From Eledone cirrhosa (Eukaryota), in the NCBI GenBank assembly GCA_964016885.1, contig OZ024755.1:30070001-30134000 (forward strand): a DNA stretch of 64,000 nucleotides, written 5' to 3'. Positions within the stretch are counted from its first letter, which is position 1; each line of letters begins with the position of its first letter. Under the pieces are notes generated by a model. The model was given only the letters and a program-made list of their open reading frames with translations. It was not told where the DNA came from and did not search any database. A program made the translations under genes and the position numbers. This document shows positions 2,926 to 5,900 of this stretch, piece by piece.

Positions 2926-5900
2926 CAATATTCCTTGTCTGGCTTTCTGGAGAATAGAGGAAAGGTGTTTCCTCAAAAACCAGTATGACTCTAAAAACCG
3001 GTTTGTCTGTGTGTTTACATACGGAATAGCTGGCCACTCACAGTAAAGTGACCAGTGAAAAAAAACTTGGTACATCTACATATGTATACGTGTGTGTATT
3101 CATATACATACTAGTATTTCAGTATACATATATGGATGTACATCTTTAACTTAATTGTTTAAGCGTCAGTCATACAAAAGTGAGTTACAAACGAAACGAA
3201 ATTTAATTTCGTTTCGTTATTTGTTTTTATCGTCTCCGTTGAACCGGTACTTACTCACACTCTATGCAAATTAGTCTGCCCACTACTAATTTTCATAGAA
3301 AAAGCATATAGCGCTATGTGCTTTTACGATTCTCTAGAGAGGCCGGAAGATAGGTAAATATTGCTGATGAGTTGTAACAACAACGAAACTAGTTCAATAT
3401 TCCTTGTCTGGCTTTCTGGAGAATAGAGGAAAGGTGTTTCCTCAAAAACCAGTATGACTCTAAAAACCGGTTTGTCTGTGTGTTTACATATGGAATAGCT
3501 GGCCACTCACAGTAAAGTGACCAGTGAAAAAAACTTGGTACATCTACATATGTATACGTGTGTGTATTCATATACATACTAGTATTTCAGTATACATATA
3601 TGGATGTACATCTTTAACTTAATTGTTTAAGCGTCAGTCATACAAAAGTGAGTTACAAACGAAACGAAATTTAATTTCGTTTCGTTATTTGTTTTTATCG
3701 TCTCCGTTGAACCGGTACTTACTCACACTCTATGCAAATTAGTCTGCCCACTACTAATTTTCATAGAAAAAGCATATAGCGCTATGTGCTTTTACGATTC
3801 TCTAGAGAGGCCGGAAGATAGGTAAATATTGCTGATGAGTTGTAACAACAACGAAACTAGTTCAATATTCCTTGTCTGGCTTTCTGGAGAATAGAGGAAA
3901 GGTGTTTCCTCAAAAACCAGTATGACTCTAAAAACCGGTTTGTCTGTGTGTTTACATACGGAATAGCTGGCCACTCACAGTAAAGTGACCAGTGAAAAAA
4001 ACTTGGTACATCTACATATGTATACGTGTGTGTATTCATATACATACTAGTATTTCAGTATACATATATGGATGTACATCTTTAACTTAATTGTTTAAGC
4101 GTCAGTCATACAAAAGTGAGTTACAAACGAAACGAAATTTAATTTCGTTTCGTTATTTGTTTTTATCGTCTCCGTTGAACCGGTACTTACTCACACTCTA
4201 TGCAAATTAGTCTGCCCACTACTAATTTTCATAGAAAAAGCATATAGCGCTATGTGCTTTTACGATTCTCTAGAGAGGCCGGAAGATAGGTAAATATTGC
4301 TGATGAGTTGTAACAACAACGAAACTAGTTCAATATTCCTTGTCTGGCTTTCTGGAGAATAGAGGAAAGGTGTTTCCTCAAAAACCAGTATGACTCTAAA
4401 AACCGGTTTGTCTGTGTGTTTACATACGGAATAGCTGGCCACTCACAGTAAAGTGACCAGTGAAAAAAAACTTGGTACATCTACATATGTATACGTGTGT
4501 GTATTCATATACATACTAGTATTTCAGTATACATATATGGATGTACATCTTTAACTTAATTGTTTAAGCGTCAGTCATACAAAAGTGAGTTACAAACGAA
4601 ACGAAATTTAATTTCGTTTCGTTATTTGTTTTTATCGTCTCCGTTGAACCGGTACTTACTCACACTCTATGCAAATTAGTCTGCCCACTACTAATTTTCA
4701 TAGAAAAAGCATATAGCGCTATGTGCTTTTACGATTCTCTAGAGAGGCCGGAAGATAGGTAAATATTGCTGATGAGTTGTAACAACAACGAAACTAGTTC
4801 AATATTCCTTGTCTGGCTTTCTGGAGAATAGAGGAAAGGTGTTTCCTCAAAAACCAGTATGACTCTAAAAACCGGTTTGTCTGTGTGTTTACATATGGAA
4901 TAGCTGGCCACTCACAGTAAAGTGACCAGTGAAAAAAACTTGGTACATCTACATATGTATACGTGTGTGTATTCATATACATACTAGTATTTCAGTATAC
5001 ATATATGGATGTACATCTTTAACTTAATTGTTTAAGCGTCAGTCATACAAAAGTGAGTTACAAACGAAACGAAATTTAATTTCGTTTCGTTATTTGTTTT
5101 TATCGTCTCCGTTGAACCGGTACTTACTCACACTCTATGCAAATTAGTCTGCCCACTACTAATTTTCATAGAAAAAGCATATAGCGCTATGTGCTTTTAC
5201 GATTCTCTAGAGAGGCCGGAAGATAGGTAAATATTGCTGATGAGTTGTAACAACAACGAAACTAGTTCAATATTCCTTGTCTGGCTTTCTGGAGAATAGA
5301 GGAAAGGTGTTTCCTCAAAAACCAGTATGACTCTAAAAACCGGTTTGTCTGTGTGTTTACATACGGAATAGCTGGCCACTCACAGTAAAGTGACCAGTGA
5401 AAAAAACTTGGTACATCTACATATGTATACGTGTGTGTATTCATATACATACTAGTATTTCAGTATACATATATGGATGTACATCTTTAACTTAATTGTT
5501 TAAGCGTCAGTCATACAAAAGTGAGTTACAAACGAAACGAAATTTAATTTCGTTTCGTTATTTGTTTTTATCGTCTCCGTTGAACCGGTACTTACTCACA
5601 CTCTATGCAAATTAGTCTGCCCACTACTAATTTTCATAGAAAAAGCATATAGCGCTATGTGCTTTTACGATTCTCTAGAGAGGCCGGAAGATAGGTAAAT
5701 ATTGCTGATGAGTTGTAACAACAACGAAACTAGTTCAATATTCCTTGTCTGGCTTTCTGGAGAATAGAGGAAAGGTGTTTCCTCAAAAACCAGTATGACT
5801 CTAAAAACCGGTTTGTCTGTGTGTTTACATACGGAATAGCTGGCCACTCACAGTAAAGTGACCAGTGAAAAAAACTTGGTACATCTACATATGTATACGT

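Follow-up and report, generated by a model that had tools for sequence, protein, structure and literature searches.

How did a 468-nt non-coding repeat come to lie in two head-to-head arms between (TA)n-rich tracts, and is the repeat kept as a structured RNA? Both questions are raised by a locus in the window, by which we mean the whole 64,000-nt stretch of Eledone cirrhosa DNA that was analysed (contig OZ024755.1, positions 30,070,001 to 30,134,000 of the forward strand); all coordinates below refer to it unless another locus is named. Repeat analysis of the window identified 3395–3862 (+) as one period of a 468-base tandem array, with copies 99.6–100% identical and a GC content of ~35%. This interval is one cut-to-cut monomer of a retrozyme family, family A, to which two further families, B and C, were compared. 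The first-pass annotation had placed the monomer in this phase, and correctly: the hammerhead core occupies 3832–3862, with its predicted cut site between 3862 and 3863.

The array consists of two arms, each with its RNA-sense 3' end facing outward. The left arm (1602..2928, −) contains 2.8 units and stops at unit base 235, referred to as the short end, while the right arm (2923..6507, +) contains 7.7 units and stops at unit base 304, the long end. The inner end of the left arm is at unit base 313, that of the right arm is 3 bases before a hammerhead cut site, and the two arms share a 6-base overlap (microhomology) at their head-to-head junction (2923..2928, from the arm coordinates). The arrays directly abut (TA)n-rich tracts on the left (1354..1603) and on the right (6505..6650), the presumed targets of insertion, and no LTR is present. 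The longest ATG frame inside the arrays encodes 62 aa and is antisense, so the arrays are non-coding.

Within the monomer, the short-end site (unit bases 230–235) corresponds to 3624..3629 (+) and the long-end site (unit bases 301–304) to 3695..3698 (+); from end mapping, these are the putative starts 1 and 2 of reverse transcription. The 69-nt segment between them (3630..3698, +), here called the tail, contains a 13-pair hairpin (3658–3686) and one strand of a helix that closes off the interior of the unit. The long end lies just past this hairpin and a T-rich run, and the stretch 3658–3696 has a terminator-like shape that could mark a natural transcript end or pause; a bacterial promoter scan of the window is not apt for this genome. 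Across 2926–6507, unit base 97 varies between C and T at a CpG, and the two arms have this variation in common, though out of register. Together with a homopolymer indel, it recurs every 3 units in one section of the right arm. Elsewhere, the window contains a long minisatellite (16-base unit, ~103 copies) and GTG/GTA triplet arrays (54784–56434, 60333–62310 and 63231–63548).

The monomer had been described as almost entirely self-complementary, with its 5' end paired to its 3' region. The pairing segments were all found in place (3395–3424 with 3797–3831, and hairpins at 3426, 3499/3517, 3538/3590, 3658, 3731/3753 and 3768), and in the minimum free energy fold unit bases 1–30 pair with 401–437 through 28 pairs with internal loops between them. 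Comparison with shuffled controls gave a folding energy of −152.4 kcal/mol for the linear unit (z = −8.42; 0 of 100 shuffles as low) and −148.1 for the circular unit (z = −12.5; 0 of 30 shuffles as low). The opposite strand folds less strongly (z = −4.3 circular, −5.8 linear), and units of families B and C gave z = −10.6 and −7.3, respectively. The unit thus folds far better than shuffles, but the description overstated the pairing: 66% of the bases are paired, against 59–61% in the shuffles, and the shape is a multi-branched set of hairpins rather than a rod. The label viroid-like fits only loosely, given a branched shape in which hammerhead stems I and II remain formed. A viroid-like rod is defined by near-complete rod pairing and non-genomic replication, whereas this unit is 66% paired and present in thousands of genomic DNA copies. 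The folding z-score was rejected as proof of RNA function, because among 28 other 468-nt pieces of the window (12 shuffles each) 7 had z below −4, 4 of them as strong as the unit at −8.9 to −22.3.

The interior hairpins are enclosed by a closing helix (3452–3459 with 3636–3643; 3452..3643, +), in which 3 of the 8 pairs swap between families. MAFFT misaligned this helix in families B and C, and it was compared by motif instead, excluding 2 of the 3 family C rows in which the wrong 5' strand was picked. One strand of another hairpin is the octamer ATGCAAAT (3732..3739, +), which 16 of the 18 units aligned from the three families retain. Promoters of the snRNA type use the ATGCAAAT octamer, and the copy here is a possible candidate for part of an internal promoter of that type. 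A promoter of the snRNA type is on record for newt satellite 2 (cited in PMC2220036).

A predicted self-cleaving motif of type I hammerhead architecture is located at 3825..3869 (+). It comprises stem I (5' strand 3825–3831, 3' strand 3863–3869), CUGAUGA (3832–3838), stem II (3839–3852; 5 pairs and a 4-base loop), GAAA (3853–3856) and a helix III of one pair with the palindrome CUAG (3857–3860), and the triplet before the cut, which is predicted after 3862, is GUU. The motif was identified by its core letters and stems rather than by a library match, Rfam giving 0 matches over the whole window at the gathering score. It is conserved in 17 of the 18 aligned units; all 18 have GUU, GUC or GUA as the cleavage triplet, and none has GUG. 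In a genome-wide search with two stem II positions left free, only T-A or A-T occurred at these positions among the 100 matches listed. For hammerheads with a weak palindromic helix III, cleavage is described as taking place in dimers (PMC4209133, PMC7229834), and monomers with a one-pair helix III are expected to cut poorly (PMC4209133).

The 18 units (11 from family A, 4 from B and 3 from C) were then used to ask for the compensatory changes among family members that a selected RNA fold should display. When the fold of the window unit was imposed on the alignment, 20 of its 152 pairs had changed on both sides yet remained paired. Stem I contributed 3 of its 10 pairs, stem II 3 of its 5 and the outer stem 5 of its 18; since the units fall into three clades, these represent few independent events. 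Overall, 89.8% of the cells pair, compared with 29–51% when the partners are slid, and RNAalifold independently returned 26 of 93 pairs with compensatory changes. Inside family A alone, covariation is weak (2 of 152 pairs, a count reached by 158 of 500 shuffles, and so not significant by pair count). The case for a structured RNA is therefore supported by the intact, predicted type I hammerhead together with the compensatory changes across families A, B and C. This bears out the proposal of the first-pass annotation that the unit is a structured RNA rather than an ordinary satellite, as does the dispersal of the family described below; that the RNA is also circularisable is presumed.

At least 7,821 exact matches to the family A hammerhead were found in the 3.0-Gb genome. 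Exact junctions between the long end (base 304) and (TA)n number 2,051 genome-wide, controls for these two counts giving 0, and the dispersal over ~2,000 sites is that of a mobile family and not of a local satellite. Counts with the short-end pattern were 773 on the forward strand and 1,489 on the reverse strand, the latter figure being unreliable owing to overlapping matches. Loose (TA)n ends also occur at both end bases (3629 and 3698) in the contigs of run X1, so that they do not stem from an error of this assembly, although this run is possibly from the source animal and gives no independent support.

The two kinds of end occur together. The 26 places with the best scores, one of them the window, comprised 20 two-armed loci of pure family A, 5 single-armed loci and 1 chimera of families A and B. 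All 20 two-armed places have one end at 229–235 and one at 301–305, counting one whose short end is at the edge of the examined stretch and one with a deletion. A sample independent of score, taken from the first 122 Mb of contig C1, contained 89 long and 71 short ends, of which 86 of the 160 are partnerless under the exact patterns. The 37 outward-facing pairs within 25 kb comprised 34 long with short, 1 long with long and 2 short with short, an excess of mixed pairs with p = 6e-8 against independent choice. In family B (472 nt, ends at 254–257 and 316, tail of 59 nt), one long and one short end were found in 5 of 5 places showing both ends, among 15 places, as scored from BLAST ends, since regular-expression end calls are noisy for families B and C; family C was excluded from the count. 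Family C has a unit of ~430–440 nt, and both B and C align with A over the whole unit. A pattern designed for further families returned 10 odd copies and missed the main spacing.

At L050:2894–5400 (contig C3, near 124,405,000), a family A arm precedes a second one that begins as A and continues as B, the change lying at a motif of the tail common to the two families. Its outer ends are both of the short kind, and the chimera reflects either a template switch between two RNAs or later recombination. In the window, 27974–28124 (−) is a fragment of an older, related family of C/B type, ending at the long-end site beside (TA)n. At L043, L044, L046, L047 and L052, matching variant sub-units occur in the left and right (TA)n flanks of the insertion, which would fit a duplication of the target that was later expanded.

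Sequence comparison of the two arms was possible for 33 of the 37 two-armed loci, those with enough overlap. The arm consensuses are identical in 19 of these 33, and the mean difference is 0.26%, against 1.4–10% between loci; in the other 14 the arms differ, in the extreme case at 14 of 458 bases. The 42 loci represent 31 haplotypes, and in 11 of 37 two-armed loci a variant absent from the other sampled loci is fixed in every covering unit of both arms. Arms reach 27–32 units and run through the cut site, and either arm can be the longer, by many units. The inner ends are uniformly distributed over the unit (74 ends, KS p = 0.48; 2 at the cut site), and the array centres are short overlaps or short templated inserts. 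Variants at the level of single units are common to both arms in 7 of 275 cases and in register in 3 of 275 (two loci, L048 and L155), and in-register variants are not predicted by a monomer circle. Within one arm, 47 variants recur, which implies that arrays also expand or homogenise after insertion. None of the 6 listed sequencing runs is entered as RNA. When contigs of 4 of them, whose type is not on record, were compared with the unit and a PLE, those of run X4 contained a joint that goes back by 468 bases, as compatible with a tandem array as with a circle.

The head-to-head arms, one-end tail and microsatellite target of the retrozyme are marks of insertion by Penelope-like elements (PLEs), and the same marks are found on an autonomous PLE of this genome. 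This abundant family, PLE-1 (22,621 first-look candidates), has 775-aa open frames with reverse transcriptase and GIY-YIG domains, and a CX4CX2C motif precedes its C-terminal endonuclease, as given for the Neptune and Nematis clades (PMC8557442). PLE-1 ends in (TA)n at two sites ~50 bases apart, and of 46 loci the 8 that are simple and two-ended all combine a long end with a short one; this count excludes two three-ended loci, and 4 of the 8 had been chosen for being inverted. Two further families, PLE-2 (48% identical) and PLE-3 (27–29%), were identified. The ends of these three PLE families share no sequence with the ends of retrozyme families A, B and C, in a comparison limited to three families rather than a full PLE survey and with the PLE-2 end read in 1 of 10 long stretches. 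The PLE fragment that lies beside a family C copy at L048 was considered as a source of the PLE terminal repeat (pLTR) and rejected, since the normal 3' end of its family differs. At this locus (L048:7660–9000), the family C copy is joined directly after the stop codon of the PLE-1 fragment, a contact that is a nested insertion or a chimera and not a pLTR.

Other traces of PLEs are present in the window and elsewhere. At ~27790–27965, a 3' end that matches the PLE-2 terminus (L200) forms a head-to-head pair between (TA)n tracts. The PLE-2 3' untranslated region exceeds 1 kb and consists almost wholly of TA/TG simple repeats (L181–L191). Two isolated hammerhead-like motifs with other stems (~38369–38430 and 53438–53495, +), each near a simple-repeat tract, are likely the ends of other PLE families.

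Based on these observations, we consider it probable that the unit is a non-coding non-LTR retrozyme, and that its two-arm insertions are made by a PLE reverse transcriptase/endonuclease that primes from both cut (TA)n strands, using two fixed positions on a single 468-nt RNA that is likely circular. An array would first be transcribed; neighbouring hammerheads would pair through their palindromic helix III and release monomers, which a host ligase would close, as has been shown for other animal retrozymes. The insertions occupy (TA)n, with an RNA-sense 3' end on each outer side, and unit bases 230–235 and 301–305 would be the two start sites of the PLE enzyme, one for each subunit of a dimer. 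Two polymerases would then go round one circle, passing the cut site up to ~30 times, and host end-joining would fuse both cDNAs head to head. There is precedent in a PLE of the anole, Poseidon, for which cleavage and extension of both strands have been shown on AT-rich DNA (Frangieh et al. 2024, PMC11167929). This enzyme, a predicted dimer, starts at two internal sites that bound a tail; its start sites were not seen to differ between the strands, and in vitro the hammerhead is dispensable and uncut RNA is the main template (PMC11167929).

Several observations count against this explanation. PLE enzymes and their cis sequences are reported to be co-adapted (PMC3846280), whereas the ends of the three PLE families share no sequence with those of the retrozyme. 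Of the 37 pairs, 3 are exceptions to the rule of one long and one short end, and 86 of the 160 ends are partnerless under the exact patterns. The in-register variants of two loci, the variants that recur within an arm, the differing arms of 14 of 33 loci and the dispensable hammerhead and uncut template of the anole PLE also weigh against it. We lean slightly towards a more far-reaching reading, namely that each two-armed array is the relic of a single insertion: a dimeric Penelope enzyme would have cut both strands of a (TA)n tract, and its subunits, one from base 235 and the other from base 304, would each have copied the same ribozyme-made RNA circle by rolling-circle reverse transcription. 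If this is true, one mechanism would account for both the head-to-head arms and the one-sided tail of PLEs, and the genome would record thousands of double rolling-circle insertions by circles that need hardly, if at all, resemble the ends of the PLE in sequence.

The main rival, which we regard as unlikely, retains the same element and the same PLE twin priming, and differs in its template, an uncut linear multimer from a donor array, so that the hammerhead would matter little for insertion. Such a template would accommodate the in-register variants common to both arms in two loci, and uniform donors would likewise give matching arms. It also agrees with the poor cutting expected of monomers with a single-pair helix III (PMC4209133), with the use of mainly uncut RNA by the anole PLE (PMC11167929) and with the finding that 8 of 9 Xenopus dimers were uncut in vitro (bioRxiv 10.64898/2026.07.22.740005). 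The circle is favoured because linear copying, through 5' truncation, only shortens arrays, yet arms of 27–32 units exist, and because it could bring a new variant to every unit of the two arms, as observed in 11 of 37 loci, only through a one-unit bottleneck and subsequent amplification. A fixed transcript start is absent among the inner ends, and all three families retain the hammerhead core and stems.

The same arms could in principle arise by a single priming event, with the antisense copy then folding back and priming itself to give the second arm, and with the likeness of the arms due to copying of the first arm or to gene conversion. A self-priming model has been argued for the inverted repeats of PLEs (PMC3846280), copying of the first arm would also yield one haplotype, and a few centres resemble fold-backs, those of L045 and L055 having both inner ends at nearly the same phase. 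In most loci, though, the inner ends are at unrelated phases, and either arm can exceed the other by many units; the second arm moreover stops at whichever fixed site the first does not use and abuts (TA)n there, for which a fold-back copy offers no reason, and we therefore judge this route improbable. Least probable is an ordinary satellite, or a Helitron-like or foldback element acting at the DNA level, with expansion through recombination and a fold that is a by-product of AT-rich palindromes: the 4 of 28 other window pieces that fold as strongly, the variants recurring within arms and the lack of an Rfam match in the window agree with it, but the intact hammerhead with compensatory stems, the strand-asymmetric fold, the dispersal over ~2,000 sites with 3' ends fixed at two positions and an end signature the same as that of a PLE all contradict it.

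Returning to the retrozyme and its PLE-driven insertion, the element itself belongs to an already described class, the non-LTR retrozymes, and what stands out is its insertion record. Like other animal non-LTR retrozymes (PMC7229834; bioRxiv 10.64898/2026.07.22.740005), it is a dispersed, non-coding tandem repeat with a type I hammerhead in each unit, a GC content under 45% and no LTR, and it has a conserved, branched, self-paired fold in which the hammerhead stays free, copies in the thousands and PLEs in the same genome. Its 468 nt exceed the 170–400 nt of the retrozymes in PMC7229834 and fall within the 51–972 nt of bioRxiv 10.64898/2026.07.22.740005. Circles of retrozyme RNA have been shown in coral, mussel and axolotl, with PLEs proposed as the drivers (Cervera and de la Pena 2020, PMC7229834), and retrozymes have since been linked to PLE pLTRs, the mechanism being left open (Li, Clavereau and Pollet 2026, bioRxiv 10.64898/2026.07.22.740005). 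No pLTR relative was found here among three PLE families, in contrast to Xenopus, where 24 of 57 retrozyme families match Repbase elements, nearly all of them PLEs (bioRxiv 10.64898/2026.07.22.740005). In the main text of PMC7229834 the terms 'inverted', 'orientation' and 'head-to-head' occur 0 times, and in the retrozyme literature searched we did not find paired long and short ends or two-armed arrays described, although subscription papers, supplements and Repbase may bear on this.

Newt satellite 2 and the axolotl Rtz_331 retrozymes are alike in having a one-pair helix III with a palindromic loop, expected cutting as dimers and a possible internal promoter. Hammerhead viroids and plant LTR retrozymes are also small structured RNAs with a hammerhead, but they block the ribozyme by self-pairing (PMC7229834), whereas the unit described here is 66% paired with its hammerhead stems formed. 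Plant LTR retrozymes have type III hammerheads, LTRs and 4-bp duplications, and this unit is genomic and of type I.

In mode of insertion the retrozyme resembles the endonuclease-bearing PLEs, including Poseidon of Anolis (PMC11167929; PMC8557442, PMC3846280), with which it shares head-to-head inverted copies, a one-end tail, two internal start sites (putative in the retrozyme), AT-rich or (TA)n targets and a hammerhead with a palindromic helix III. It differs in having no ORF, in its longer tail (69 nt, or 59 nt in family B, against 30–40 nt in PLEs) and in arms that are many-unit concatemers, where a PLE has one ORF with a partial repeat. Head-to-head repeats with a one-end tail are known for PLEs (PMC8557442, PMC3846280) and have been explained by self-priming (PMC3846280), while PMC8557442 lists their origin as unresolved; the mobility of retrozymes, in turn, is still a proposal in PMC7229834 and bioRxiv 10.64898/2026.07.22.740005. 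The insertion record of this genome bears on both questions, how retrozymes move and how PLEs make inverted ends. It provides a 468-nt ORF-free template with two mapped end sites, a counted one-of-each rule, evidence for one template per two arms and intact PLE frames in the same genome, and thereby a small, defined substrate for in vitro tests of twin priming and rolling-circle reverse transcription.
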